This document shows positions 239 through 33,069 of a DNA stretch of 36,679 bases, piece by piece. Origin of the DNA: a virus (taxonomy: Duplodnaviria > Heunggongvirae > Uroviricota > Caudoviricetes); IMG/VR virus record IMGVR_UViG_2579778919_000010; one strand, 5' to 3'. The position numbers and the translations under genes are program-made. The notes under the pieces were generated by a model that did not search any database, was not told the origin of the DNA, and worked only from the letters and a program-made list of their open reading frames with translations. The first letter of the stretch is position 1, and the number at the start of each line of letters is the position of its first letter.

Positions 239-793
239 TTATATGTCAGATGCTGGGAATCGTTTGTACAGAGTTGAGATTCCGACGTCATAAATTAGGG
301 CCACCCTCTGACGAGTTTCGCCAGCCGCTAACAATCTTCCAGCCTGCGCCCACTGTTCAGGTGTTAACTTAGGTCTTCGACCTCCCACGCGCCCCTCAGC
401 TCGCGCAGCAGCCAGACCTGCACGTGTACGTTCAACAATCAGTTCACGTTCCATCTCGGCCAATGCCCCCATAACATGAAAAAAGAAGCGCCCCATTGGC
501 GATGAAGTATCTATGCTGTCAGTCAGACTTTTAAAGTTGATACCTCGCTCGCGTAGTTCTTCCACCAGTCCAACCAGATGACGCATGCTGCGTCCGAGGC
601 GATCAAGCTTCCAGACCACGAGGGTGTCACCTTCAGATAGCGTTCTGAGTACCCGTTTTAGTCCGGGTCTGTCTGAGGTTCTGCCGCTTATCTTGTCTTC
701 AAAAATCAGCTCACATCCTGCACATTCCAGCGCATTACGCTGTAATGCCGTGTTCTGGTCATTTGTTGATACACGTACATAGCCAATAAGCAT
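239..793 (-). CDS. gin: Serine DNA invertase, Gin/Pin/Hin/Cin family
   Basis: Translation from MLIGYVRVSTNDQNT... with catalytic-serine motif YVRVS, GDTLVVWKLDRLGRS and C-terminal HTH (ALIYDVGISTLYKR). ORF track begins 12 codons upstream at 829; the conserved N-terminus argues for 793. Confidence 0.93.
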   Translation of the reverse strand: MLIGYVRVSTNDQNTALQRNALECAGCELIFEDKISGRTSDRPGLKRVLRTLSEGDTLVVWKLDRLGRSMRHLVGLVEELRERGINFKSLTDSIDTSSPMGRFFFHVMGALAEMERELIVERTRAGLAAARAEGRVGGRRPKLTPEQWAQAGRLLAAGETRQRVALIYDVGISTLYKRFPASDI

Positions 794-847: not shown

Positions 848-873
848 TTATCGAAAACGTTGGTTTAATTGGT
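848..873. repeat. gix/hix-like invertase crossover site A, next to gin
   Basis: TTATCGAAAACG-TT-GGTTTAATTGGT: left half matches the hix/gix half-site TTATCAAAAACC in 10 of 12 positions; about 55 bp upstream of the gin start; inverted relative to site B. Confidence 0.6.
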
Positions 874-1446
874 AAATCAAATCGTCGTAATCGTAGACCG
901 GCATCTGATGAACTGGACATGCTCATTGAAGGTCTTCAACAACGATCTACACATAAATGCTCAAAAATTCCGTTCGTTGATATCCTCAAATTTTCTGTGT
1001 GGTCATGTATGCGAATCGGTGAAGTATGCCGATTACGATGGGAGGATCTCGATCAGGAACAAAAATCCATACTCGTAAGAGACAGGAAAGATCCACGTAA
1101 AAAGGAAGGCAACCATATGAAAGTAGCCTTGCTTGGGGAAGCCTGGGATATCGTCCAACGACAACCCAAAAAATCAGAATTCATTTTTCCATATAACAGC
1201 ACTTCTGTTACTGCGGGATTCCAGAGGGTAAGAAGCAAATTAGGTATTAAAGATCTGCGATACCATGATTTGCGTAGAGAAGGGGCAAGTCGCTTATTTG
1301 AGGCTGGTTTTAGTATTGAGGAAGTCGCCCAGGTTACAGGGCATCGTTCATTAAACGTGCTATGGCAGGTATATACCGAACTGTATCCGAAATCTTTACA
1401 TAATCGTTTTGAAGAGCTCCAAAGGAGCAGAAATAAGACCTCTTGA
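862..1446 (+). pseudogene. Tyrosine recombinase catalytic-domain remnant (no N-terminal domain, no own start) in the alternate arm of the invertible segment
   Basis: MRIGEVCRLRWEDLD (box I-like), DLRYHDLRREGASRLFEAGFSIEEVAQVTGHRS (box II-like) and a conserved Y in LWQVYTELY. The ORF-track N-terminus 811-861 lies outside the segment over the gin promoter/site A and is discounted. Confidence 0.55.
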
Positions 1447-1507
1447 CACTGTTTATCCATACAGTTAAAAATAATACTGTATACAACCACAGTATAGAGG
1501 GACTTTT
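1443..1507 (+). promoter_or_regulatory. LexA-regulated promoter: -35 TTGACA, -10-like TAAAAA(T), two SOS boxes
   Basis: TTGACA at 1443-1448; CTGT-N8-ACAG at 1449-1464 (cactgtttatccatacagtt) and at 1477-1492 (tactgtatacaaccacagta); AGAGGGA Shine-Dalgarno before the ATG at 1508. Confidence 0.7.
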
Positions 1508-2038
1508 ATGCGTATTGAAATCTGCATAGCCAAAGAAAAAATGACTAAAATGCCAACCGGTGCTGTGGATGCGTTAAAGGAAGAATTAACCCGACGCATC
1601 AGTAAACGTTATGACGATGTAGAGGTGATCGTAAAAGCCACCAGCAACGATGGCCTTTCTGTTACACGCACCGCAGATAAGGATTCTGCAAAAACTTTTG
1701 TTCAGGAGACTCTGAAAGATACCTGGGAATCTGCTGACGAGTGGTTTGTTCAGAGTCGGTTCTTACTGCATCCTTTTCACTGGGGATTGATGGGCCCAAG
1801 CGTGGATCACTCACGCGTCAGTGAGTGGAGCGCGTGTCTCAATAATGACCTGGAGCGTTTTGTCGATATTTTGGAGAGTCAGATTGAGCTCAGTAAGAGC
1901 CGCAATGAGTGGAAGGAGGTTATCTCCGCCGCCACCATAGCCAATGCCTCCACAGCTCTGGATTGGGGGATGGTTCACGAGGTTGCCGCCGCCACTTACC
2001 CGCAGGCACCCGGCACATACTGGTGGATTAACTGTTAA
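1508..2038 (+). CDS. DinI-like protein with an unusual ~95-residue C-terminal extension
   Basis: First ~81 residues [31 protein letters not shown]...[15 protein letters not shown] resemble E. coli DinI; ORF runs on to 176 aa with no stop where DinI normally ends. Confidence 0.7.
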
Positions 2039-2197
2039 CATAATTACCTCTCAAATTTAAATTGGGCAGAGATGCCAGCATCCAGGCTCGCGCCTGGACG
2101 ATTGTCTGATGATGAAAAGTGCAGTTTAATCTGTGGCTGGATTATCTGGATGCACTGGAGCTGGTTGATACCTCCAGTGCGCCAGATATTGAATGGC

Positions 2198-2590
2198 CTA
2201 CTCCTCCGGCAGTTCAGGCCAGATGACATCCGGTGCGGTGCTGGTATCTGTTGCCGTCACAGCGTCGATATAATCCAGCACAGCGTTAAGTCGGGTTGTT
2301 TCTGCCTGCGTCAACTTCCGTCCGGCCTGTAATTTCAGTTGAATCAGACTAATGGAAGCCATAGCTGCATCAATCAGCGACTGGCGCTGTGCTTCTGCCT
2401 CACGAAGTAATTCATCATGTGTTTTTGGCGGCTGCATAGGTGACGAAAGCTTTCCCTTATCATAGAACCAACCAATTCTTACATTATCGGATACAGGTAT
2501 AACTAACGCATTAGTTGGTTGCCAGGCACTCTCACCATCCCATACAGCAATATTGGTAACAACACCATTTTCTATAACGGCATAGTTCAT
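2198..2590 (-). CDS. U: Tail fibre assembly protein (U/Tfa-like)
   Basis: MNYAVIENGVVTNIAVWDG... N-terminus typical of Tfa chaperones; its start overlaps the fibre stop (TGATG); directly downstream of the fibre gene. Confidence 0.8.
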   Translation of the reverse strand: MNYAVIENGVVTNIAVWDGESAWQPTNALVIPVSDNVRIGWFYDKGKLSSPMQPPKTHDELLREAEAQRQSLIDAAMASISLIQLKLQAGRKLTQAETTRLNAVLDYIDAVTATDTSTAPDVIWPELPEE

Positions 2591-3558
2591 CACGCATACT
2601 CCCAAATGATTGCAATACCAGCCATTCCTCTACCTCCGGCACGCTGCTGCGTCGTTCCACCGTAGACACAGGCACCACTGCCTCCACCACCATGGCCATT
2701 AGCATTAATACCTTCGCCTACAATGGCTTGTGACCCAGCCCCCGCACCAAGGATTGAATCGCCGCCAGGCCCCCCCATCGCCAGACTGCCGGAATACCGA
2801 ACGCCTGGTGAGCTATAACCGCTTCCAGACACGATAATATTGGCACCTGTAAATCCCGGCTCAGTATATGCTCCATACGGACCAACAACCCCAGGAACAG
2901 TGCCTTCAGCAAGAACATTCCCACCAAGACCACCTTTGGCAATTATGGTATTGCCGAAAGAGGTTGCTCCCCCGGGAGCACCAACCGACGCACTTGCACC
3001 AGTGCCACCATATCCTATTGTCACAGTAGTTACGGTTGGATTATCCACGCGAGCTTTAACATACTCCCCGGACATCCCCCCGCCACCACAAGCAGCATTA
3101 TTGGGATAACCGACCTGACAACCACCACCGGCCCCACCACCACCAACAATTTCAACAATAATAAATCTTGTGCCTTTTGTCGGAGTGTATGTACCTGAGC
3201 TTTTAAACACCTGACACTGTATAAGCCTCCCGGAGCCATCTCCCAAACCAAGGTTTGTGAGAGCCGCCGCGATTGCTGCCGCACCATCTGCTTTAATGTC
3301 GCCAAATGGATTGGAACGACTCAGAAACAGTTTTTTGAGAGCGACCAGAATCTGCGTGTTGTCCATTTTGTCAGGATCAATCCCAGCGGCCTTGAGAATA
3401 TTGAGCAGCTCGCTTTGAATGACATTAAACCAGTCCGGTCCGGGATACGTCGGAGGAACGCCATTACCTCCTTCAGTAAAGAAAAGCTCGGTCTCACTGG
3501 TGACAGGAGACGGTTGTGGCATAACCGGAACACCGGTTGAATTATCTACGTGAAACAT
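2590..3558 (-). CDS. S: Tail fibre protein (S-like); residues ~1-103 constant, ~104-322 inside the invertible segment
   Basis: 322 aa with glycine-rich C-terminal region (GGGGAGGG, GYGGTGAS); follows the DUF2313-like gene; crossover site B is encoded at codons 100-105 (LTNLGL). Confidence 0.8.
   Translation of the reverse strand: MFHVDNSTGVPVMPQPSPVTSETELFFTEGGNGVPPTYPGPDWFNVIQSELLNILKAAGIDPDKMDNTQILVALKKLFLSRSNPFGDIKADGAAAIAAALTNLGLGDGSGRLIQCQVFKSSGTYTPTKGTRFIIVEIVGGGGAGGGCQVGYPNNAACGGGGMSGEYVKARVDNPTVTTVTIGYGGTGASASVGAPGGATSFGNTIIAKGGLGGNVLAEGTVPGVVGPYGAYTEPGFTGANIIVSGSGYSSPGVRYSGSLAMGGPGGDSILGAGAGSQAIVGEGINANGHGGGGSGACVYGGTTQQRAGGRGMAGIAIIWEYA
3238..3263. repeat. gix/hix-like crossover site B, inside the tail-fibre gene
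   Basis: ATCTCCCAAACC-AA-GGTTTGTGAGAG; core AAACCAAGGTTT matches hixL (AAAACCAAGGTTTTT); its reverse complement aligns with site A (AAAC[G/C]TTGGTTT). Confidence 0.6.
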
Positions 3559-4148
3559 CAGTTATCTCCTGAAGAATAAAAATATTCGTATGCTGTGCCG
3601 CCGAGACGGTATTTCGTCAGCACACACTCCAGTTCTCTTGCACGTTCGCTCAGAAGCGGTGTCATGACGTTATCGATACAGGTAAAACGTCCGCCGTTGA
3701 TACCGATCACATCAATCTGTAACGTCCAGCGATAACGAGCTGGATAAAGGGGATACACGCAGCTACGCATGCAGTGGTGAGGCAGAATGACAGTAACCCG
3801 GATAGTAAATCCAAGCGCGGCAGCCACAGCTTCAATCTGCCACGGGGAAAGGCCACCTTTGCGGTGATACTTCTCCACGACAGCACGACGTCGGTCTTCT
3901 ACAGTACCGCTTAACTGCCCACACTCCGGCAGTTCAAGGTATTCCTCCCATTCTTCCAGCAGCATAAATGTTGTTTCTGGCCGCATCTCCGGTAGCAGGT
4001 TTTCTGCATCAAATTCCGTCTGACTTAAACGCCTGGCTAACGCCCGTAAAAAACGGTTTAAATCACCATCCTCATCGCGTGACCACGCTTTGCCACGTGG
4101 CATGACCTGCCATAAAGCGCCCAGCCATTCATCTACACTGTGGGCCAT
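3558..4148 (-). CDS. Tail protein, Mu gp48 / YmfQ-like (DUF2313)
   Basis: Position between the J-like baseplate gene and the fibre gene; family assignment from recalled similarity. Confidence 0.7.
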   Translation of the reverse strand: MAHSVDEWLGALWQVMPRGKAWSRDEDGDLNRFLRALARRLSQTEFDAENLLPEMRPETTFMLLEEWEEYLELPECGQLSGTVEDRRRAVVEKYHRKGGLSPWQIEAVAAALGFTIRVTVILPHHCMRSCVYPLYPARYRWTLQIDVIGINGGRFTCIDNVMTPLLSERARELECVLTKYRLGGTAYEYFYSSGDN

Positions 4149-5209
4149 GTCAGCACTCCGATAGTGATAAGTTCATTCTGAGCACAGGGAATGTCAGCGG
4201 TCAGATTCAGCGTGTAATCCGTCACGCCAGATGCGGTGCCGATAGCAGTGCGAATCGCTGAAATGGGCAGCGTTTGTCCTGGTTGCAGCGTCTTCTGAAG
4301 CGTCAACAGGCGGGACTGGACAGCTTTACGCGTGGCCGGTGTATCCGGTGTTATGCCAATAATCATATTGACGGGACGGAGCACCAGTTCCACGGGCCAG
4401 ACTTCTATTCCTCCAGGTTTACCAACCCATACGCCAGTCGCCGGGTCGGTATGACGGAAAAGGTAATCTTCCATATTTTTCCGGTCCTGATATCCGGGGG
4501 TAATCACTGAACGATCGTCATAAACCCATGCCAGTCCGATTGTGCAGGGACCATGCCAGGCATCAAATGCCCACGCCCGACTGACACCAGCCATTTCTCG
4601 CGCCCAGATGACATAGTCATGCACAGCCCCACCAACGGGGGGATTGCGTTTACGGAATAAAAGCCGGTCAAGCAATTCAGAAACTGGCTCAATATCCGAA
4701 CCACCGATGATGCCTCCCGTACCCGTTAAACCAATACTTTCCACGCCGGGAACGGGGGACAGCAGGGTCAGGCTTTCACCTTCCGGAAGGTTTCCTGACG
4801 CGCCGGCATCGCTGGCCTGAATGGTTACAGTCATGACCCCATCTACAGGAACGCCGGAAGTCGTCACGGCATAAACAATACCGGTAGCGGTTTGCATCTC
4901 CATATCTTCCGGCAGCGGTGTATTCCCTTTAAATACCGCCGGCCCCGTAGCAAACGTGGCCTGTTTTCTGACGACGCCTTCGCTGGCCGCAGTCTCAATG
5001 ATGGTTTCATCATCAGATTTAACAGACGGAATAATCTGGTCTTTAATCCAGCTCTGATGGTCGTATAAATCACGAACCTGATTGCTGAATGAGGTATTTA
5101 GAGCTTTCTCAACGCCTACTGGCGGAAGTTTTTGCAGCCCCAGTTCAAAGGCAATATCTTTTTCGCCGTCAGTAATAAGCTTGCGCAGCGCGGGAACGTT
5201 ATAAGGCAT
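4133..5209 (-). CDS. Baseplate J-like protein (Mu gp47 / W)
   Basis: 358 aa, conserved position in the Mu tail module. Confidence 0.8.
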   Translation of the reverse strand: MPYNVPALRKLITDGEKDIAFELGLQKLPPVGVEKALNTSFSNQVRDLYDHQSWIKDQIIPSVKSDDETIIETAASEGVVRKQATFATGPAVFKGNTPLPEDMEMQTATGIVYAVTTSGVPVDGVMTVTIQASDAGASGNLPEGESLTLLSPVPGVESIGLTGTGGIIGGSDIEPVSELLDRLLFRKRNPPVGGAVHDYVIWAREMAGVSRAWAFDAWHGPCTIGLAWVYDDRSVITPGYQDRKNMEDYLFRHTDPATGVWVGKPGGIEVWPVELVLRPVNMIIGITPDTPATRKAVQSRLLTLQKTLQPGQTLPISAIRTAIGTASGVTDYTLNLTADIPCAQNELITIGVLTWPTV

Positions 5210-5651
5210 TAGCAGTGGACTCCCAGCGTTTACTTATTTCAATCCGGAGCGTCGTTTTATCCGGGCGGGTTAGAATGACAATAAAATTAATTCGGTCATT
5301 GCCGCTTATAGTGGCTGTGACTGCTGCATTACGCGCATAACCAGAACGTAAAAGCGGTTGCATAGAAAGCAGTGCATAATCTTCCACCCGCATTCTGACG
5401 GATTCCGTCAGCTTCTCGCGATCCAGCAACCAGAGTTTCGATCCCCACGGATAATCACTAAATGTGTCGCCGGGCCAGCCTCTCGGGTCCGATGAGTTAT
5501 CAGGAATAATGTCATCAGTATCAGCACGGACGTCGGTGAAAAGACAAATCAGAACCAAAGTGACCAGTCCTTCATCACGCGATAAACCATCATGGTTAAT
5601 TGTCAGTTCACCTCTGGAGAGTTGATTATTCCAGCTGATACCAATAGTCAT
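5199..5651 (-). CDS. Baseplate protein (Mu gp46 / V-like)
   Basis: 150 aa, synteny between the gp45-like and J-like genes. Confidence 0.7.
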   Translation of the reverse strand: MTIGISWNNQLSRGELTINHDGLSRDEGLVTLVLICLFTDVRADTDDIIPDNSSDPRGWPGDTFSDYPWGSKLWLLDREKLTESVRMRVEDYALLSMQPLLRSGYARNAAVTATISGNDRINFIVILTRPDKTTLRIEISKRWESTANAL

Positions 5652-6190
5652 TTCATCTCCGATGTTTTTTTGCCATCCCCGTCCATATGGAAATGCTCAA
5701 GAACAGATTTACCGGCGACCTGAATATCATTTGAAAATACAGATGGGCCGTTAACTTTTAATAATTTTGTATTTATCGCAAACAATTCGCCGGCATCGTA
5801 ATTAACCGATTTCCCTTTAACGTCGATAAGACCACCTTTTTTCAGGGTGATATAAGACTGACCATCGCCGTGATATAACCTGACCTCTCCATCCTCCAGA
5901 CCTTTTGGACGACAGCGCTTGTCTTCAACAGCGATTGCCACCAGACCTTCCCGGCGTCCCCCCACTGCCAGAATGAGTGCTTCTGAACCGACTGGCGGCA
6001 CAGACGTCAGGCCGTAGTTCTGGAAACGTTCAACATCATCATTGGTGGAATCCGCCAGAGACTGGATCTGGAGGTTCTGACGCCCGAGACTGTCTGTAAC
6101 GATACGAACAACGGCCCTGTCAACGAGCAATCGCAGCCGGCGTCCAATACCTTCAAGTGTGCGACCGATATTTGCCGGATTCAGTCCCAT
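5648..6190 (-). CDS. Baseplate assembly / spike protein (Mu gp45 / Q-like)
   Basis: 180 aa, synteny; coupled starts and stops with neighbours. Confidence 0.7.
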   Translation of the reverse strand: MGLNPANIGRTLEGIGRRLRLLVDRAVVRIVTDSLGRQNLQIQSLADSTNDDVERFQNYGLTSVPPVGSEALILAVGGRREGLVAIAVEDKRCRPKGLEDGEVRLYHGDGQSYITLKKGGLIDVKGKSVNYDAGELFAINTKLLKVNGPSVFSNDIQVAGKSVLEHFHMDGDGKKTSEMK

Positions 6191-7275
6191 GTTTCCTCCG
6201 TTTTTGCCTTTGATCTCTTGCCTTTCTTGCCTGCTTTTTTCGCACTGGTTTCAGGCATATCCATCGACTCAGGGGGAACCAGCGTCAGAACGCAGAGACG
6301 TCCGTTATCACCTTCAGTAAACGTGACGGTTTTAATCAGCCATGAGTCCTTCAGGTTCTGTACCGGGTCATCAATATCAACGCGCCTGTTTTTCTGCCAT
6401 AACGGGCCTTCATCGCCATTCTCTCGCCATCCTGCCAGTGTAATTTCGGTGCTGTTGGCTTCGCCCATCATCCGCGCTTTGTACCATTCACCGCGTGTAC
6501 TTGCGCCTCCGACGGTCAGGCTGTCTTCATTGACCAGAATTTTCGGGCGGTAACGGTTGATGTCACCATCATCAACGATGGTCTGACGTCCTCCAATCAC
6601 TTTGACTGGCTGATCGTCCCACGTGCTCCCACCCGCACTGGAGGTGCCTTTCACGATGTACTGGCTGTTTCTCTCACGCCAGCTGAACCGGCCGCGGGCT
6701 GCAAGAATATTGGTCCCGAAAATCAGAGGAACGCCGGCACGCTTTGTTGATGCACGGGTGATGATCAGATTACCCAGACCATCAGCAGTCAGCAGAACGC
6801 CGCGTTGTTTAGCCAGGCGGTCAAGAAGATCGAAGGCGGTCTCTCCCTGTTCAAGCACCACGCTACCGAAGGTTTCACCAGTGTCAGTTTCACTGATAAC
6901 ACTGATGCCATAGGGTTTGCAGATTTCCACTGCCAGTTGCTCCAGTCGAACACCTTTCCACTGGCCGGATTTATGCACCACTGAGCTGTCAACGAGATCG
7001 CCGGTTTTATCCCGCCCCATAACGCGAATACTCATGTTTTCTGCGTCATAGCTGGGAATGAAATCATCAATATACCCCGTCAGAACCGTATCTTTTCCCA
7101 GCCTGACGATGCAGGGCATGCCCTGCTTAATCACGCGTGGTGATGCTTCTGACCATTGTGTGGTGACAGTGAGATCAAATTCGCCGGCAACAGCCTCCAG
7201 TGAGGAAGTGATGGACATCTCTGTCCATCCGTCCCACTGCTGGCCGTCAACCTCAAGCACAACCATTTCCATCAA
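6181..7275 (-). CDS. Baseplate hub / tail protein (Mu gp44 / P-like)
   Basis: 364 aa; position after N; lysine-rich C-terminus. Confidence 0.75.
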   Translation of the reverse strand: MMEMVVLEVDGQQWDGWTEMSITSSLEAVAGEFDLTVTTQWSEASPRVIKQGMPCIVRLGKDTVLTGYIDDFIPSYDAENMSIRVMGRDKTGDLVDSSVVHKSGQWKGVRLEQLAVEICKPYGISVISETDTGETFGSVVLEQGETAFDLLDRLAKQRGVLLTADGLGNLIITRASTKRAGVPLIFGTNILAARGRFSWRERNSQYIVKGTSSAGGSTWDDQPVKVIGGRQTIVDDGDINRYRPKILVNEDSLTVGGASTRGEWYKARMMGEANSTEITLAGWRENGDEGPLWQKNRRVDIDDPVQNLKDSWLIKTVTFTEGDNGRLCVLTLVPPESMDMPETSAKKAGKKGKRSKAKTEETWD

Positions 7276-8603
7276 TCTGTTACCTCGACAGGTTTACCCG
7301 GAAGAACGAACGCCGGGTCTTTCAATCGGTTCCTTGACGCGATGGCGTCACGGTTCTCGGTATTACCGGTTTCACGCCATGCAATCAGAGATACCGGGGA
7401 CGTTGTGGTCAGAATGACCGTTCGTGTCTGTGGTAGCTGAGCGCTTCTGACCCGCACGTCATTGACGACGGCAAAGCGCAGCTCGCGCAGGGCATGCCAC
7501 AAATTCCGCTGACCGTTTTCTACGGCATACACAGCTTGTTCATTCAGTTGCTCAGCCAGCGTGTCACCCGCACTTATGGCTTCCTCACTACTTCTGAACT
7601 CGGTGCTGGCAACGGTCTCTGCCTGTCCAATTAGGCTGGCAACGACAATCAGCTGACGAAAATGAGTGATGTTGGCCTGCATGGCATCGGTCAGTTCAGG
7701 GACAACGTCCGGAAGGCTGCTGGCAAAACCATACTTTCCGTCAGTCACTGAACCTGGTGTGACTGACATGTATTTGGGCAACTGGTGAAGTGCAGCGGCT
7801 GTCGCCCGGTCACTTGTATTTGTTGGCGAAACCGGCGACGACCACGGCGAAGATGAAGAACCGGAAAACTGATCTCCCTGCCACCGGTTGCGGATCTGAT
7901 CATAAACCCGCATTGACCAAAGAGGTTCGGTCACGGTGTCGCGTACACCGCTGACAAGGTTCAGAACATCATTGATAAATCCGGCTGGTTTCGCGACGGC
8001 CAGCTCAATCAACCCACGAAAACGCCCTAAACGGTCAGTCCATTCAGTAATCGCGGAGGGCAGCGTCAGCACACCCACTACCAGATTTTCCATGTCGTCC
8101 ATCCACGTATCGGCCATCTCACCAAGACCATCAAGCAGGGCAAAGACATCGCCATTCGCCAGCGCAGCTTTGACCTTATCCGCTGCGCTGAGTACCGTCA
8201 GGCTGGTATTTTCTGCCGGCGCAGGAAACAGGCGCTCGCCCGCCTCAGATACCTCAAAAGAGATGTAGGCAATGCCGCCTTCCTCAGTGCTCAGACGGTG
8301 AGTCACCTTACCAATCTGAACCTTCTGAATGCCGAACCACGGATGGATAAGTTCACCGGGTCCAGGTGTGTTCAGAGCCCGGAGAAGTGCCTCCAGTTGG
8401 CTCTGGTAGTTCTTTCCAATCAGCTTGCCGTTGATTTGCTGTTGGGTCAGAACGGCACCGTTATCCTCGGTCCAGCCCACTTCTTTTTTGGGGTAGGCGC
8501 GGGGAATTGCCCGACGGCCGCTGGTGCCTTCGTTATCGACCAGATAAAACGAGACGCCCCGGAACGAAGCATCGCGCAGGTCTTCCCATCGGGTAGCAGC
8601 CAT
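7272..8603 (-). CDS. N: DNA circularisation protein N (Mu gp43-like)
   Basis: 443 aa directly downstream of the tape measure gene, as in Mu. Confidence 0.75.
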   Translation of the reverse strand: MAATRWEDLRDASFRGVSFYLVDNEGTSGRRAIPRAYPKKEVGWTEDNGAVLTQQQINGKLIGKNYQSQLEALLRALNTPGPGELIHPWFGIQKVQIGKVTHRLSTEEGGIAYISFEVSEAGERLFPAPAENTSLTVLSAADKVKAALANGDVFALLDGLGEMADTWMDDMENLVVGVLTLPSAITEWTDRLGRFRGLIELAVAKPAGFINDVLNLVSGVRDTVTEPLWSMRVYDQIRNRWQGDQFSGSSSSPWSSPVSPTNTSDRATAAALHQLPKYMSVTPGSVTDGKYGFASSLPDVVPELTDAMQANITHFRQLIVVASLIGQAETVASTEFRSSEEAISAGDTLAEQLNEQAVYAVENGQRNLWHALRELRFAVVNDVRVRSAQLPQTRTVILTTTSPVSLIAWRETGNTENRDAIASRNRLKDPAFVLPGKPVEVTD

Positions 8604-10522
8604 CAGCCTTGCTCCACGCTGGACACGCCAGCAGATGCACTAAGTTTGATATCCGGCTGGTTCATGGTGACGCTTTTAACACGGCCACCGCCACCCTCAA
8701 GGATCACGCGGATTTCACCCTGCATTTTCTGTAGGGTTGTGGGTAATGCAGGTGGCTGAACAGGCTTATCAAACGCGTTTTTGTTTTCAATTGCGGCGTT
8801 GGTGCCACGCAGAAAATCAACGATGACACCAAACAAAGAATGATCACTCGTTTCAGGGCGCGGTCTGTCTGCCGGGGGATTTTCAGCCGCAGGAATGAAC
8901 GGCGTCGCCGGGGTCAGTGATGCCCACGGGCGCGGGTCAATAACCGGTTTCTCATTTGCTTTGCGTTTGGCACGATCCTTTGCCCACTGAACCATGCCAG
9001 CTTTGTCATCACTGCTCAGTGATGGTTCTTCATAAAGGTATGGAATAGTTGACGCCAGCATGGTCAGGCCGACCATTTCCTGTGGGCTGCCAGGACGTCT
9101 GGGACTATTAGGTTTACGGGGATTTTTTCCATCAGGTCCATCGGGGATTAAATCACCCGGCCCCCCCATCCCACCTTTGCCCATGTTCACGACATAAACG
9201 GGCATAACACCGGAGCCAAAAACATCGGAGACGCCTTTAGGGATGCCTTTTCCGCCTTTTTCTGGCTGGAGAAACTCCCATGCACCTTTACCAATTTTAA
9301 ATGCTTTACGTGCCGCAATGACTCCAGCGGTCGCAATGGCTATTTTCTTGCCGACTTCCAGCCAGTTCTGAACCGTCTTTTGATCAACTGAATTGATAGC
9401 ATCAGCCAGGTCCTGTACCGGGCCGGCAAGATTGCTGTTAGAAAACTTCTTCCAGGTAACATTCAGGCTGGTCAGTGCCGAAGTAAAATCTTTCGCCGCA
9501 TATTCAGCATCTTTCATGATGCCTGTGCCGTCCCCGACAACTGACTGGTATCGCTTGAGGTTTTCTGCTCCTTTACCAGAGGTGGCACTGCTGATAAGTA
9601 AAATACTGTCCTGGTTAAAACCGGCTTCCAGGAGTCTTTTATTCTGTTTCTCAGAACCTTTACTCCCTGATTTTTTAGCGATTTCCTCCAGGAGTGTTGG
9701 AAGTGATCGCATCTTCCCATCTTTGTCATAAACGTTGACACCATTCTTTCGAAGGGTGCTAACAACCTTTGGCAACTGCAGATCACGAATAAGGTTTTCA
9801 GTCGCCGTGGCTGCTGTATCACGGTTGCCTGTGGCATCAATGGCTGATTCCAGTACAACGCCTACGTCTTTGACTCCCTTAACGCCACTCCCGCCAGCAG
9901 CGGAGTACATAGAGAAGGCTCTGACGCCTTTTTCTGCAATGTCTTTCAGCTCAAATGCGCCTTCTTTTCCCAGAAGGTTTAACGTGTCCATAGCTGCAAG
10001 CGTCTGCTTTTCAGTCTGAAGACCAAATTTGGGGAACTGAGAAAACAGTCCGCCAATCGAATCCCCCTGAGAGCCTGATGCAGCGATAGAGGCGGCTATC
10101 ATGCCCTTATTCTGAATACCGAAATCCAGATCACCGGTCGTTTTGTTGACATTCTCCAGTGCGGCCAACACCTCCGAGTCATCCACCCGGAATTTGATGG
10201 CGGTATCCTGAATACCATCAAAGATATTGCGCATCTCATCACGAGTTTTACCGGCGGCAATACCCAGCCCGGTTAATTGTCGATCTGTTTTAGCAAATTC
10301 TCTCAGCGCTGCGCCGCTGGCAAGGCCGGCAATCATCGTTGTATAGCGATTACTGAGCATGTCCAGACCACGTCCGGCAGATTCAGACGCGGCCTTAACA
10401 ACAGACATTGCTTTCTGGTTACGGCTGGCAAACTCGCTCATGTTAGCGCCGTACTGGCGGGCTTTAGCCGTCAGGTTCCCGGCAAGGTTAATCAGAATTT
10501 CAGTGCTTAGGCGGTTTGTCAT
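8603..10522 (-). CDS. Tail tape measure protein (Mu gp42-like)
   Basis: 639 aa, Gly/Ala-rich with a GKGGMGGPG stretch; lies between the chaperone and N. Confidence 0.85.
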   Translation of the reverse strand: MTNRLSTEILINLAGNLTAKARQYGANMSEFASRNQKAMSVVKAASESAGRGLDMLSNRYTTMIAGLASGAALREFAKTDRQLTGLGIAAGKTRDEMRNIFDGIQDTAIKFRVDDSEVLAALENVNKTTGDLDFGIQNKGMIAASIAASGSQGDSIGGLFSQFPKFGLQTEKQTLAAMDTLNLLGKEGAFELKDIAEKGVRAFSMYSAAGGSGVKGVKDVGVVLESAIDATGNRDTAATATENLIRDLQLPKVVSTLRKNGVNVYDKDGKMRSLPTLLEEIAKKSGSKGSEKQNKRLLEAGFNQDSILLISSATSGKGAENLKRYQSVVGDGTGIMKDAEYAAKDFTSALTSLNVTWKKFSNSNLAGPVQDLADAINSVDQKTVQNWLEVGKKIAIATAGVIAARKAFKIGKGAWEFLQPEKGGKGIPKGVSDVFGSGVMPVYVVNMGKGGMGGPGDLIPDGPDGKNPRKPNSPRRPGSPQEMVGLTMLASTIPYLYEEPSLSSDDKAGMVQWAKDRAKRKANEKPVIDPRPWASLTPATPFIPAAENPPADRPRPETSDHSLFGVIVDFLRGTNAAIENKNAFDKPVQPPALPTTLQKMQGEIRVILEGGGGRVKSVTMNQPDIKLSASAGVSSVEQG

Positions 10523-28820: not shown

Positions 28821-29759
28821 TCACTCCTCTCCGATACCGCTGTGGCCCAGCTCCAGCATGGCGGACTGGATGTGCGCCGTGCCAATGGTCTCACCCTTGC
28901 CCTGAGCGTAAATTCCGGCCAGCGGCAGGATGTGCGACAGAGAACGCAGCGCCCCCGGACGTCGGGCGATAGCCTTCAGCAGCTTGCGTTCGTCAGCGCC
29001 GGTGACCTGCCAGGCATCGCAGAAGCTGTCCACGTCACCAGCGGAAACGGTATTGATGACGTACTTCTTGGACACGCGGGAGAACAGGCGGGCAAAATCC
29101 ACGCTGCGCTGGCCGCCGGTAAGACGGTCATAGACCTTGTGGTTACCCACCAGTGCCAGCCCCACGCCACATTCCTCCTGGAGAATACGCAGCTCTTCCA
29201 CCGCATCCAGACTCAGCCAGTCGGCTTCATCCACCACTATCAGGCCGCGCGTGTCCGGCAGACGCTGGCGCAGCAGGCGAGAGAGTGCACCACGGCGGTA
29301 TGGCGCATCGCTGATGCCCATTTTCAGGGCCAGTTCATACAGGGTCTCCAGCTCATTGCTGCGGGATTTGCTGGCGGTGATGTGCCAGACGTTATTACCG
29401 CCTGCGGCATACTGCCGGATAGCCTTTGTCTTACCCACGCCCGGATTGCCGTAAACCAGCACAATCGTCCCGGCCAGCTGCGCCCACGTCAGGGTGGCGA
29501 GGATTTTCTGAGAGGTCGGTGTCTCAACGAAATCAGGGGCCACCGGAAGCGTGGTTTTCGCGGCGTTGTGACTTTCAAGCCAGGTATTCAGGCTGGCAGC
29601 TACGGTGTCATTGTCACCTTTGTATTTCCCGTTCAGGAACTGTGAAACCGTCGCGGTTGATGTACCGGTCTCACGCGCCAGCGCTGCACCGGAAATCGTC
29701 TTGCTGTCGATAAGTTCACGAATGGCACTGCGCACAACATCATGGTTAATTTGCGTCAT
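28821..29759 (-). CDS. B: Transposition protein B (AAA+ ATPase, target DNA activator)
   Basis: 312 aa with Walker A GNPGVGKT and Walker B LIVVDEAD; N-terminal HTH; directly downstream of A. Confidence 0.93.
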   Translation of the reverse strand: MTQINHDVVRSAIRELIDSKTISGAALARETGTSTATVSQFLNGKYKGDNDTVAASLNTWLESHNAAKTTLPVAPDFVETPTSQKILATLTWAQLAGTIVLVYGNPGVGKTKAIRQYAAGGNNVWHITASKSRSNELETLYELALKMGISDAPYRRGALSRLLRQRLPDTRGLIVVDEADWLSLDAVEELRILQEECGVGLALVGNHKVYDRLTGGQRSVDFARLFSRVSKKYVINTVSAGDVDSFCDAWQVTGADERKLLKAIARRPGALRSLSHILPLAGIYAQGKGETIGTAHIQSAMLELGHSGIGEE

Positions 29760-29854: not shown

Positions 29855-31837
29855 TTATTTCCGTGCCTGTTTAGCCTTATTAACAAACTGCTGGAAAATA
29901 ACGTCGTTTTCGCTCTGCGTTTCCTGTATGTCCTCCACGCGCTTGACGGTGTTGCCCAGGGTAAATACACGCTCCACCACATGCCGCTCCGGCAGTTCTG
30001 CATGCTCAGTCTTCGGCAGCAGGTCATTCACCTCAATCGCCGTCATACGGTTCAGAGCCTTAGTCGCTTTCTTCGTACTCTTGATCATCTCGCGGCGTGC
30101 ACGGTTGTGTTCACGTCCAGCCTCGGTATCGCCAAAGGCCACGGCGGCACGACACTCAGCCATGCAAAGGAAACGGCCGTCGAGGTCATAACAGGCGACT
30201 TCTCCGTGCAGGTTCCTTGGATCAAACCGGACGGTGATTTTGCGCGAGCGGTGGCTGACGAGCTGTTCACTCCAGTAAGTATTCTTACGGCCAAATAACG
30301 AGCCCCCGCACTCCATCGTAAATTCGCCTGTAGTCTTCACGCGTACAGCTTCCGCAGGCAGCATCAGTTGACGAATTTGCTCTTCGGTCATACGGGTGAT
30401 GACTGACTGGCTGTAGCTGCGCTCAAACGCCTGGTCGAAGGACAGTTCCCCCCGGCACATCTCGGTCTCGCGCCCGGCCTTCGCGTTGAACATGGCGACA
30501 CCTTCGCTGATGGTTTCCAGGAATGTATCCACATCCACCGCCCGGCTGCCGTAGTTCTCTGGCTTGGAGCTGACGTTTTCACCGGCAAATGCTCCAGCCA
30601 GCGCAGGATGTTTGTCGATATATTCGCCCAGACCGCCCACGCCGAAGGCACGTTCAACGGGCTTTGCCTGTCCCCAGCCCTTACCGCCAATCACCCCCGT
30701 CCAGTGCAGCTTCATTCCCAGCAGAGGGATGATCCCCATCGGGTCATCAGGTTTGACTTTGAAGCGGTAACGGTTAGGAACGCCACCGGACAGCCATTTA
30801 TTTGCAGCAGCGCGGGTGTTATCGATGGTCACATGTTTAGGCTTACCGTAAGCGCGGATGGTATCCATCAGGGATAAACGGATGCTGTCACTGTTCTCCG
30901 ACAAATCAGCACGCCAGCCAATAATTTTGCGACTGTGGACATCCTGCCAGAACCACGTTTTAGGACGGATGATGTCGCCGTTAAACCAACGGACAAACAC
31001 GTTGTGCTGGTAACCGTCGCCATTGATCCACTCCATCGCATGAAGATATGCCACGGTGCGCTGCTGCGACGGATACATCTGCGCCAGCGCGTTCTCGCCC
31101 TCACGGGTGGCAACGACGATACGCGGATCAACTTCACGTTCTAGCTTGCGGCGCAGAGTGCGCTCAGCGGGAATAATCCAGCCATGAGCATCTGCCGCCT
31201 TTTCAAGGCGCTCATAGCTTTTGGAGAAGAACGGCGCTTCGTTTCGCAGATAATCGCCCAGGAAGAACTGCCAGGCATCTTCAGAGATATCGGCAGTCCG
31301 GCCAGTCTGACGTTTTTCACGCACACGGCGGTCAAGCAGTACCGGACCCCAGAGGTCAGGACTATGGTCTTTGACTTTGTAGTAAAGATTGCGCAGCGTA
31401 CCTTCACTGATTTGCAGCTGTTTTGCTGCCAGCGTGATCGCCTTACGATTGCCGATGCCGGAAGCCATCAGTTCCGCCACCAGCGCGGCAGCTTTAGTCC
31501 GGCGTTCTGCATGCAGACGCTGCTCGCCGGTAGCTTTCTCCCATGCAGACCACAGTCGCTGGCGTTCCAGATCGTCAGCCGCCACGCGCTCAGGCTCCTG
31601 TGGCAATGTAATCAGCCCGGATGATGTTTCAATCAGGCCACGTGCGGCCAGCAGTTCAGCGCGGACTTCAGGTGGCAACACCGATATGTGGTATTCGAAT
31701 GCTTTGGTGCCAGCACGTTTACGGCGTAGTTCACTACGTCCACTGACAAAAGACTCCAAATGTTTTCTGACGTTCTTTTCTGCATTAGGAAAAGAACAAA
31801 TTCCTACGCATTCTTTTGCGGTAACCCAGAAATCCAT
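29855..31837 (-). CDS. A: Mu-type DDE transposase A
   Basis: 660 aa; long collinear similarity to MuA as recalled ([36 protein letters not shown]..., [19 protein letters not shown]..., LLPAEAV...). Confidence 0.95.
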   Translation of the reverse strand: [660 protein letters not shown]

Positions 31838-32073: not shown

Positions 32074-32302
32074 TCTGCGATCCTTAAATGTTTACACGTT
32101 CAGGTCAGCAATATCGCTAACCACTACGAGTAAAGATTAGAACACAAAAGAACGAAAGTAAATACTTTTGCGTACTTTTATGGTTGATGAGGTTAACCAT
32201 GATATTTTATTTAAAATCAAATCGTTACTTGATTTTCCGTGGTTAATCACAAAAAAGTACCAGATGTATTTTTCAATAACACAGAAAAGTACGGTGAATG
32301 AT
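32074..32302. promoter_or_regulatory. Early operator / divergent promoter region between ner and c
   Basis: AT-rich; repeated TACTTTT / AAAGTA elements (cgaaagtaaatacttttgcgtacttttatgg, aaaagtaccag, gaaaagtacgg) resembling Mu repressor-binding repeats. Confidence 0.55.
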
Positions 32303-32767
32303 ATGGTTGATTTTAGTGAATGGGTGTCAGTTCAGGATTGTATTGGTCTACCAGGTTTCCCCAGTGGAGCGCCGAATGTCCGGCGGAAACTGGAACAACT
32401 TGTGAGTAATAATCCTAAGTTGAAACGTAAGAAGGCTAAATCGAAAGCATATGAATATCATGTATCGGTCTTGCCAGAAGAAACAAAGAAATTCTTGGGG
32501 GTAGAAGAGCGCTCAGTTATACCTGACTCAGCCTTATCGTCACCAAGCTCAACAGCTCGGGACCTATGGATAATGCTTTTCGACAACTTAACAGAGCGTC
32601 AAAAACAGTATGTTATTAAGGTTTTCATGCAAGGTGGGCTGAACGCTTTAATGCCGATGGTAGCTGATTTGGAAGCCAGTGCAGATAGAGAGATTTTTGA
32701 ACAACGTGATCCCAATGAACAGATTCAAGCCGCGCCGAAGCTGAGCACGCGAAATAAAGCTGGCTGA
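32303..32767 (+). CDS. c: Repressor c (Repc-like), with N-terminal DNA-binding domain paralogous to the transposase N-terminus
   Basis: DFSEWVSVQDCIGLPGFPSGAPNVRRKLEQL...AKSKAYEYHVSVLPEE parallels the A N-terminus [29 protein letters not shown]...[14 protein letters not shown]. Start uncertain: 32168, 32264 and 32303 are all in frame; upstream candidates overlap operator-like repeats. Confidence 0.65.
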   Translation: MVDFSEWVSVQDCIGLPGFPSGAPNVRRKLEQLVSNNPKLKRKKAKSKAYEYHVSVLPEETKKFLGVEERSVIPDSALSSPSSTARDLWIMLFDNLTERQKQYVIKVFMQGGLNALMPMVADLEASADREIFEQRDPNEQIQAAPKLSTRNKAG

Positions 32768-33064
32768 TTGCAAAAGTGCTCAATTGGCTGGCTTTACCTT
32801 CGCACCTCCTGTGGGCATTTTAAGCTGAGTTTAAATCCCGTTAAACGCTTTGAAATTAACTGCTATACGATCCAAATCTATGTGACACTTAACTGGCTTC
32901 GCTATCGAATGATCCAAAATTGACGATATGCCAGATTTTCCACAAGTCGAGTAGCTTAACGTTGTGCGAAGCCTCACAACTCAAGCCTTCCTCCCGTTAA
33001 TTCCCATGAATTCCCGGTTATTCCCGGGTTCTCTGTTTGATCCATACATCACTGTCACTAGTCA
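32768..33064. promoter_or_regulatory. Prophage left-end (attL-like) terminal region
   Basis: Non-coding stretch between the c stop and the inferred CA terminus; contains three exactly 10-bp-phased ATTCCC repeats (33000, 33010, 33020) and GATCCAAA(T/A) repeats. Confidence 0.45.
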
Positions 33065-33069
33065 CTGGG
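33065..33069. repeat. Target-site duplication CTGGG, copy next to the prophage left (L) end
   Basis: Identical to 169-173; follows CA at 33063-33064. Confidence 0.6.

Follow-up and report, generated by a model that had tools for sequence, protein, structure and literature searches.

We analyzed a 36,679-nucleotide stretch of viral DNA (IMG/VR record IMGVR_UViG_2579778919_000010; the whole stretch is called the window below), which is a Mu-like transposable prophage of Escherichia coli from about position 170 to 33064. Its left edge holds a tail-fibre gene, the fibre assembly gene tfa and a Gin-type invertase gene, and between two gix-type crossover sites, A (848-873) and B (3238-3263), lies an invertible segment of 2.39 kb. 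The second arm of this segment has been overwritten by foreign prophage DNA. We propose that an invertase made one of the joints at a quasi-site and that inversion would still be possible; we put the probability of this reading as a whole at roughly 70%. Since the foreign DNA is joined where the invertase cuts, the arm resembles what an off-target invertase reaction would leave behind in nature, and no new type of system is indicated. An earlier note on this DNA, made from its letters, had described the segment. What comparison with related prophages adds is the donor (a dusA-type prophage), a probable route of entry (recombination between the centre of gix and a quasi-site in the donor's integrase gene, int) and the hybrid nature of site A.

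Two inverted gix-type sites, one of them a hybrid

Site A, on the plus strand, reads TTATCGAAAACG-TT-GGTTTAATTGGT, with its central TT at 860-861. Site B, on the minus strand, is a canonical gixR within the fibre gene, at the boundary between the constant and variable parts of that gene (about codons 99-107), and its minus-strand reading is CTCTCACAAACC-TT-GGTTTGGGAGAT. The two sites stand in inverted orientation, agree at 16 of 26 positions, and share an identical central TT and the common core AAAC(G/C)TTGGTTT. With at most one mismatch allowed, the 12-nt core AAACSTTGGTTT occurs at only two places in the 36.7 kb, sites A and B; 0.36 matches are expected by chance, and two or more were found in 5 of 100 shuffled sequences. 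Because the sites are short, the pair was not among the 25 longest repeats returned by a generic inverted-repeat finder.

For comparison, loci L001-L004 were fetched from complete E. coli genomes and aligned to the window by BLAST. Sites A and B are positionally homologous to gixL and gixR of the related prophages L001, L012 and L013, and site B is homologous to the fibre-side sites of L001, L013 and L014. The left half of site A matches the Mu gix site (TTATCCAAAACC-TC-GGTTTACAGGAA) at 10 of 12 positions. The central TT, the unique core and the gixL/gixR positions bear out the claim of the earlier note that A and B are inverted copies of a gix-like sequence. As judged from sequence, this Mu-like prophage has a Gin-type invertible segment, of which A is the crossover site next to gin and B the one within the fibre gene.

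The two halves of site A have different origins. The outer half, TTATCGAAAACG, derives from the prophage's own gixL, and the inner half, GGTTTAATTGGT, derives from a quasi-gix within a dusA-type integrase gene. We scored half-sites with a position weight matrix (PWM) built from 13 natural sites. Site A gave 14.9 bits for its outer and 1.2 bits for its inner half, compared with 13-16 bits for natural inner halves, and site B gave 27.1 bits. The inner half of site A retains GGTTT plus one of the seven remaining positions of the family's inner half. The present-state junctions read TTATCGAAAACGTTGGTTTAATTGGT and ATCTCCCAAACCAAGGTTTGTGAGAG.

The second arm is built from dusA-prophage DNA

The left part of the prophage is a mosaic of four blocks. 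Block 1 (171-866) matches the sister Mu-like prophage L001 at 98% identity. Block 2 (855-1752) corresponds to dinI and the preceding 3' part of int in the dusA-integrated prophages L002-L004 (96.5-97.6% identity); it is 97.7% identical to phage mEp460 and 99.8% identical to contig L008. Block 3 (1753-2383) corresponds to L003 6782-7412 at 94.5% identity, where the 3' part of a ClpP-family gene is followed by a stub of a second tail-fibre assembly gene (tfa'). Block 4 (2121-6500) is again L001-like, at 96.8%. At the corresponding positions L001 has, in order, gin, a gp53-like fibre end (Sv'), tfa', tfa and a glycine-rich fibre gene.

The first gene of the arm, int' (862..1446, plus strand), is the 3' 53% (codons 172-365) of a dusA-type tyrosine integrase. 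The earlier note had read this product as a recombinase catalytic domain, and the Pfam profile Phage_integrase agrees, matching at 2.6e-21 over positions 7-169 of its 172. The product thus has a complete catalytic domain but none of the N-terminal domains of the full-length, 365-residue relatives. The open reading frame (ORF) containing it, 811-1446, has a read-through start at a fortuitous ATG at 811. Downstream, in the dinI promoter region, a consensus search found two LexA (SOS) boxes on the plus strand, one with two mismatches (1447-1466) and one perfect (1475-1494, TACTGTATACAACCACAGTA), where 0.3 matches are expected by chance. They lie ahead of the dinI fusion described below; the captured arm therefore brings its own DNA-damage-inducible promoter into the invertible segment.

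The next ORF (1508..2038, plus strand, 176 amino acids) is a dinI::'clpP fusion, in which residues 16-80 match Pfam DinI at 6e-19. Its DinI part (1508-1752) is joined in frame at 1752/1753 to the 3'-terminal 95 codons from a ClpP-family cargo gene, such that the DinI domain and both LexA boxes are kept, the dinI stop codon is gone and 95 foreign residues are added. Relative to L003, whose ClpP-family ORF matches CLP_protease (Pfam 7e-13), 884 bp are missing, namely the stop codon of dinI, a remnant of pin and the 5' portion of the clpP-like gene, and the junction shows no microhomology. The arm ends in a tfa' remnant (2131..2226, plus strand) with stop codons ahead of it; these last 31 codons of a second tail-fibre assembly gene translate as WLDYLDALELVDTSSAPDIEWPTPPAVQAR before the stop and match the C-terminus of the L001 Tfa'.

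Gin-type segments have two arms in opposite orientation with a fibre end and Tfa each, and here the second arm consists of int', dinI::'clpP and the 31-codon tfa' stub. Because L001 is normal at the same place, with Sv' and Tfa', and because the stub was left behind, we conclude that the arm was replaced and that the segment was not built this way, as the earlier note had suspected. That note described the arm as a recombinase remnant plus dinI with no fibre. The absence of a fibre stands; the dinI ORF proved to be a fusion with 95 ClpP-family codons, and a Tfa remnant also survives. The note's identifications of Gin, DinI, Tfa and the fibre agree with the Pfam matches given here.

Related E. 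coli prophages have a hot spot for cargo genes in the interval between pin and tfa. The cargo is a ClpP-like gene with a pin remnant in L003 (6005-7255), DUF4145 in L004 (6250-6945), and an acyltransferase with a remnant of the pin helix-turn-helix in L006/L007 (1235-2260). In B-lineage strains (E. coli B/BL21/C) a gene labelled 'anti-CBASS Acb1 family protein' adjoins tfa. Among the dusA-type integrases we also noted a variant of 392 amino acids (P0002) with an internal tandem duplication of 27 residues (ELLMDSDISAIKLSELTENDVIEHCRL repeated).

The left joint maps to the exchange point of the site

At the left joint L001 reads TTATCGGAAACG-TT-GGTTTGGGAGAA, and an intact int reads ATCTACTTAAAC-TT-GGTTTGATTGGT, coding LLKLGLIG. 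This quasi-gix within int (AAAC-TT-GGTTT, coding KLGL) can also be written ATCTACTTAAAC-TT-GGTTTRATTGGT. Homology to L001 stops at 866 and homology to int starts at 855-860. Position 859 of the window is the G of gixL, and the sequence is int-type from 867 on, which places the crossover within the seven nucleotides TTGGTTT (860-866), which include the central TT. Serine invertases cut at the central dinucleotide, and the int quasi-site has the same central TT as gixL together with partial half-site similarity. On the right, homologous recombination made the joint within the conserved stretch of about 100 bp that ends tfa', where single-nucleotide polymorphisms turn from L003-like to L001-like at about 2135-2233.

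These joints suggest the following course of events. The ancestral arm with Sv' and Tfa' was overwritten by L003-type dusA-prophage DNA comprising int codons 172-365, dinI, part of the ClpP-family gene and the end of tfa'. The left joint would have been made by an invertase of the Gin/Pin family at the int quasi-site, as Cin does at cixQ. The second, homologous crossover would then have turned the quasi-site event into a patch replacement, for which no lasting chromosomal inversion is needed, and a later deletion of 884 bp joined dinI to the clpP-like remnant. Two variants of this course were considered and rejected. The 1752/1753 joint is not a second quasi-site event, as it has no gix-like centre and no homology. 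Nor did all parts arise in cis from one dusA/pin-type prophage, as gin and its flank are 98% L001-like and 75% identical to the dusA-type pin.

The same int position is joined to a second gix site in another prophage

A protein search with the predicted flipped-state chimera of fibre and integrase returned as its best match no integrase but P0001 (289 amino acids, 514 bits), in which a different fibre N-terminus is fused at ...TNLGL/IGKSNRR... to the identical C-terminal part of Int, followed by dinI. This arrangement is present in three assemblies (contigs L008-L010), two from Logan runs and one from an ENA metagenome. At the DNA level the junction is CTCTCACAAACC-TT-GGTTTAATTGGT and int'-dinI is 99.8% identical to the window; the backbone is unrelated, belonging to a prophage next to yciI-tonB. 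In its normal form (L014, 9802-12577) that prophage carries a pin of its own and a complete segment with two arms. The three contigs (L008, at 8001-8870, L009 and L010) all end just past dinI. Their arrangement implies either a large chromosomal rearrangement between tonB and dusA or a patch with a second copy of pin.

One int position is joined, then, to two different true gix sites. The quasi-site may have served on two occasions, or else the arm, once captured, passed from one prophage to another by way of its hybrid site. Both accounts implicate an invertase. Of 5,426 complete E. coli genomes, about 960 carry the dusA-type int and none of these has the gix joint, so joining of gix to int is rare.

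Two further candidates were rejected. In P0125/L011 the break lies 10-11 nt from the quasi-gix centre and int is joined to unrelated DNA, which excludes it as a third quasi-site event. The unrelated DNA (L011 6494-6807), which starts with TGCTTTTCCGTAAAC and interrupts a dusA-type int upstream of the centre, could be the end of another mobile element. The arm of L015, examined as a further capture, is merely a different fibre cassette.

The invertase gene and the expressed arm

The gin gene (239..793, minus strand) encodes a serine DNA invertase of 184 amino acids (MLIGYVRVSTNDQ...) with Pfam matches to Resolvase (7e-51) and HTH_7 (7e-12). The protein is 79.6% identical to Mu Gin and 100% identical to the invertases of L012 and L013, relatives in which the segment is found in both orientations; over 171-861 the window differs from L013 at 2 nt. 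By likeness to Mu, Hin and Cin, the 5' part of gin is expected to hold a Fis-dependent enhancer.

On the opposite side of the segment, the constant 5' part of the fibre gene (Sc, residues 1-103; 3250..3558, minus strand) lies outside the segment, downstream of gp48, gp47, gp46 and gp45. Over residues 1-109 the fibre shows 42% identity to the N-terminal part of Mu S. Within the segment lies the variable, glycine-rich 3' part (Sv, residues 104-322; 2590..3249, minus strand; Pfam Gly_rich_2, 1.5e-9), which completes the fibre ORF 2590-3558. Many other E. coli prophages carry the Sv cassette at 98-99% identity, with the homology ending at site B. The tfa gene of the expressed arm (2198..2590, minus strand; Pfam Caudo_TAP, 8.5e-22) is 96.8% identical to that of L001, and its ATG at 2590 overlaps the fibre stop codon. 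From this arrangement we infer that the fibre gene is now ON, as Sc-Sv plus Tfa. In several RefSeq genomes the glycine-rich fibre gene (L001 5826-6794 and several others) is labelled 'carbohydrate kinase', very likely a mis-annotation of a tail-fibre protein.

Inversion would yield a fibre-integrase chimera

Simulated exchange at the central dinucleotides gave an in-frame product of 297 amino acids, consisting of fibre residues 1-103 followed by GLIGKSNRR...KTS. This is the fusion to the integrase catalytic part that the earlier note had foreseen, and it is in frame because both sites code LGL in the same phase. The predicted flipped-state junction sequences are TTATCGAAAACGTTGGTTTGGGAGAT, CTCTCACAAACCTTGGTTTAATTGGT and ACCAATTAAACCAAGGTTTGTGAGAG. 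The Sc::Int-C chimera lacks the 171 N-terminal residues of the integrase and the receptor-binding parts of the fibre, and a function for it is therefore unlikely. Inversion would lead to a dead-end OFF state, giving Sc(1-103)::Int(172-365) with no fibre tip or Tfa expressed and with Sv and tfa lying promoterless beside gin, and a host-range switch would thus have decayed to, at best, an ON/OFF switch.

Inversion between A and B is expected to be possible, probably at a reduced rate, given that gin, the flanking DNA, the outer half of A and the whole of B are intact. The segments of strains ECONIH4 (L012) and EC09 (L013) are inverted relative to each other within collinear flanks, and their outer half-sites are as in the window. 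A poor half does not preclude flipping, because the site Phi2_3prime of strain EC958 (GAGAGATAAACG-TT-GGTTTGGGGGAA) was shown to invert by PacBio long reads (PMC4134206), and its half-sites score -1.3 and 13.5 bits, against 14.9 and 1.2 for site A. We would give residual flipping of the segment roughly even odds.

The two related segments (L012 4229-9368 and L013 4229-6866) are the same G segment in opposite orientations with identical gin. That of ECONIH4 also holds an IS66 element, and there gin adjoins a lambdoid gpJ gene, so the gin module of that strain has moved into a different prophage context.

Evidence against quasi-site capture and other explanations

Several observations weigh against the proposed capture and against continued inversion. 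The int quasi-site scores poorly, its PWM total being 0.5 bits, and about 30 distinct other 26-mers with a central TT score as high in 194 kb (53 matches minus known gix sites and duplicated loci). The idea that the quasi-site is an exceptional sequence failed accordingly, the PWM scan finding it ordinary; since it is weak, the role of the invertase is argued from the position of the joint and not from the quality of the site. The seven shared nucleotides would also allow microhomology-mediated joining. The reciprocal product (int 5' part-gix-Sv') was not found in proteins, in the 5,426 E. coli genomes or in genome contigs: a protein search with Int residues 1-173 returned truncated or frameshifted integrases only, the constructed reciprocal DNA junction had no place in the complete genomes covering at least 80% of the query, and the pattern CTACTTAAACTTGGTTTGGGAGA had no match in genome contigs. 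The two quasi-site junctions could be non-independent, the captured arm moving between prophages via the hybrid site. Finally, the arrangement is found on a single contig with only the ON orientation recorded. The flipped-state chimera of this element was not found in a protein set of 5.8 billion clusters, the junction pattern AAACSTTGGTTTRATTGGTAAATCAAAYCG had no match in genome, viral and metagenome contig collections, and neither orientation occurs in the complete E. coli genomes, where the constructed flipped left junction matched none.

The explanation that survives best after our own has the same origin and differs in what followed: the segment would now be frozen in the fibre-ON state, the inner half of site A no longer binding Gin productively and the arm being inert except for the SOS-controlled dinI fusion. 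The low score of that inner half (1.2 bits against 13-16 in natural ones) and the single recorded orientation, ON, would both follow. E. coli prophages commonly contain segments that have decayed and become locked (L003 and L006/L007, with pin remnants and cargo, are examples), and fibre-less virions from an OFF state should be counter-selected. However, EC958 Phi2_3prime flips despite one very poor half, Gin is intact, undecayed and identical to that of flipping relatives, and the hybrid site has apparently recombined at least once. We regard a frozen segment as a possibility to be taken seriously, though we lean away from it.

A joint made by microhomology-mediated recombination at the 7-nt TTGGTTT, with no invertase involved and the likeness to a quasi-site coincidental, seems distinctly unlikely. 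The weakness of the quasi-site by PWM speaks for it, as does the other novel joint of the arm (1752/1753), an illegitimate deletion formed without homology. But the left joint coincides with the 2-bp point of exchange in a 26-bp site beside an intact invertase, and its partner has the same central TT; by a rough, uncomputed estimate, a random joint in the approximately 700 replaceable bp would strike the 7-nt stretch about 1% of the time. Moreover, the second junction, in a different prophage and with a different bona fide gix, lies at exactly the same int position.

We also considered a programmed function, in which the int quasi-site is a true third site, or selection has favoured either the Sc::Int-C chimera or the dinI fusion: the phase of the fibre might be coupled to integrase or SOS control, or the chimera might protect the host as StfE2 does. 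Chimeras are in frame at both known junctions, dinI retains its two LexA boxes, and e14/PinQ is a reported case in which inversion creates a chimeric fibre protein that has a function in the host (PMC12529663). Yet none of the approximately 960 int-bearing genomes has a gix joint, and the arrangement of the window is found on one contig. The chimera is without the DNA-binding domains of the integrase and the fibre tip, its frame is explained by the common LGL coding, and the arm is full of debris (the tfa' stub, the clpP' fragment, the deletion). We consider this explanation highly improbable. Least credible of all is a draft-assembly chimera of a normal Mu-like and a dusA-type prophage in one genome: the source is indeed a draft whole-genome shotgun contig with an arrangement unique to it and a right joint in a repeat of about 100 bp, but the left joint shares 7 nt and the 1752/1753 joint none, far below the overlaps that assemblers use, and the same type of gix/int junction occurs in three independent assemblies from two pipelines.

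Relation to known invertible segments

In most respects the segment resembles the G segment of Mu with Gin, and likewise the P1 C/Cin, e14 P/Pin and p15B Min systems. The invertase gene lies next to a segment bounded by two inverted 26-bp sites, one of which is in the fibre gene at the constant/variable boundary and codes ..NLGL.. (compare QNLGLQE in Mu S). In addition to the similarity of the invertase to Mu Gin, the prophage has a Mu-type baseplate and MuA/MuB. Unlike in Mu, the second arm has no fibre end or Tfa, one site is a hybrid, and the central dinucleotide is TT in place of TC.

For the proposed joint itself the closest parallel is Cin. In work by Iida and Hiestand-Nauer in 1986 and 1987, Cin reportedly recombined a true site with a site of limited homology and the same central dinucleotide, leaving hybrid sites; these cixQ events are said to have been laboratory selections on plasmids and the chromosome. 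The left joint of the window has the same exchange-point anatomy. It differs in being natural and fixed in a prophage, in its patch replacement by homologous crossover, and in having brought foreign genes into the segment. Cin quasi-site recombination is cited in PMC4134206 (refs 50-51, Iida & Hiestand-Nauer 1986, 1987).

The Phi1, Phi2 and Phi4 segments of EC958 have the same family of 26-bp sites (..AAACG-TT-GGTTTGGG..), and their inversion was shown by long reads, with one active site having a degenerate half (PMC4134206). Unlike the segment in the window, they carry two complete fibre and Tfa arms. The captured DNA, in turn, resembles the int-dinI module of dusA prophages (mEp460, L002-L004), with identities from 96.5 to 99.8%. 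The intact genes of that module adjoin dusA, whereas in the window codons 172-365 of int are present with no att site and no N-terminal domains, and not at dusA.

Invertases are known to act in trans on other prophages, and PinQ-driven inversion of the e14 P segment creates StfE2, for which a phenotype was measured (PMC12529663). In the window, too, a prophage invertase would have acted on another prophage, and inversion is predicted to yield a chimeric fibre-derived protein. In the PinQ/e14 case both partners are fibre genes, and here the partner is an integrase fragment.

Quasi-site recombination by invertases of the Gin/Cin type has been known from the laboratory since the 1980s, and natural products have rarely been documented. 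Our searches, which were not exhaustive, found no prior account of a natural, breakpoint-resolved quasi-site capture of non-fibre DNA into an invertible segment. The present case has a joint mapped to the exchange point, with donor and recipient identified and a second natural junction at the same int position. No new mechanism is shown, and a single draft genome is the only known source of this exact arrangement. The case illustrates how a host-range switch that works by inversion can be deprived of one arm and acquire foreign genes. It also suggests that unrelated prophages of one chromosome can recombine through the action of prophage invertases. Annotation pipelines will label such arms 'integrase' and 'DinI' and overlook the surrounding invertible segment.

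A broader proposal, which we think unlikely, is that E. coli prophage invertases recurrently use the int KLGL quasi-site and so make fibre segments into platforms for capturing genes other than those of fibres and moving them about. If this were true, SOS-controlled dinI would be among the genes moved between prophages, the flipped state would put captured genes under late fibre transcription within a fibre-N::Int-C fusion transcript, and off-target invertase activity would be a selectable route of gene flow between prophages and of chromosomal rearrangement, and not a one-off.

The prophage and its chromosomal setting

The prophage encodes MuA (29855-31837), MuB (28821-29759) and a c-type repressor (32168-32767), as well as the sheath, the tape measure and, for a baseplate of the Mu type, gp45-gp48; Phage_Mu_Gp48 and Baseplate_J of Pfam match genes neighbouring the fibre gene. 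By exact look-up, the sole record of the dinI-fusion protein is on one contig (GCA_000482045.1, ATJZ01000037.1), where cusRS lies upstream. The prophage begins with TG at 170 and ends with CA at 33064. Its left flank is the cusS side, and its right flank consists of an Rhs fragment and a DLP12-like xis/intD region. Because the flanking CAGGC and CTGGG (165-171, 33060-33069) do not form a 5-bp target duplication, the prophage lies at a rearranged or deleted junction and is not a simple insertion.

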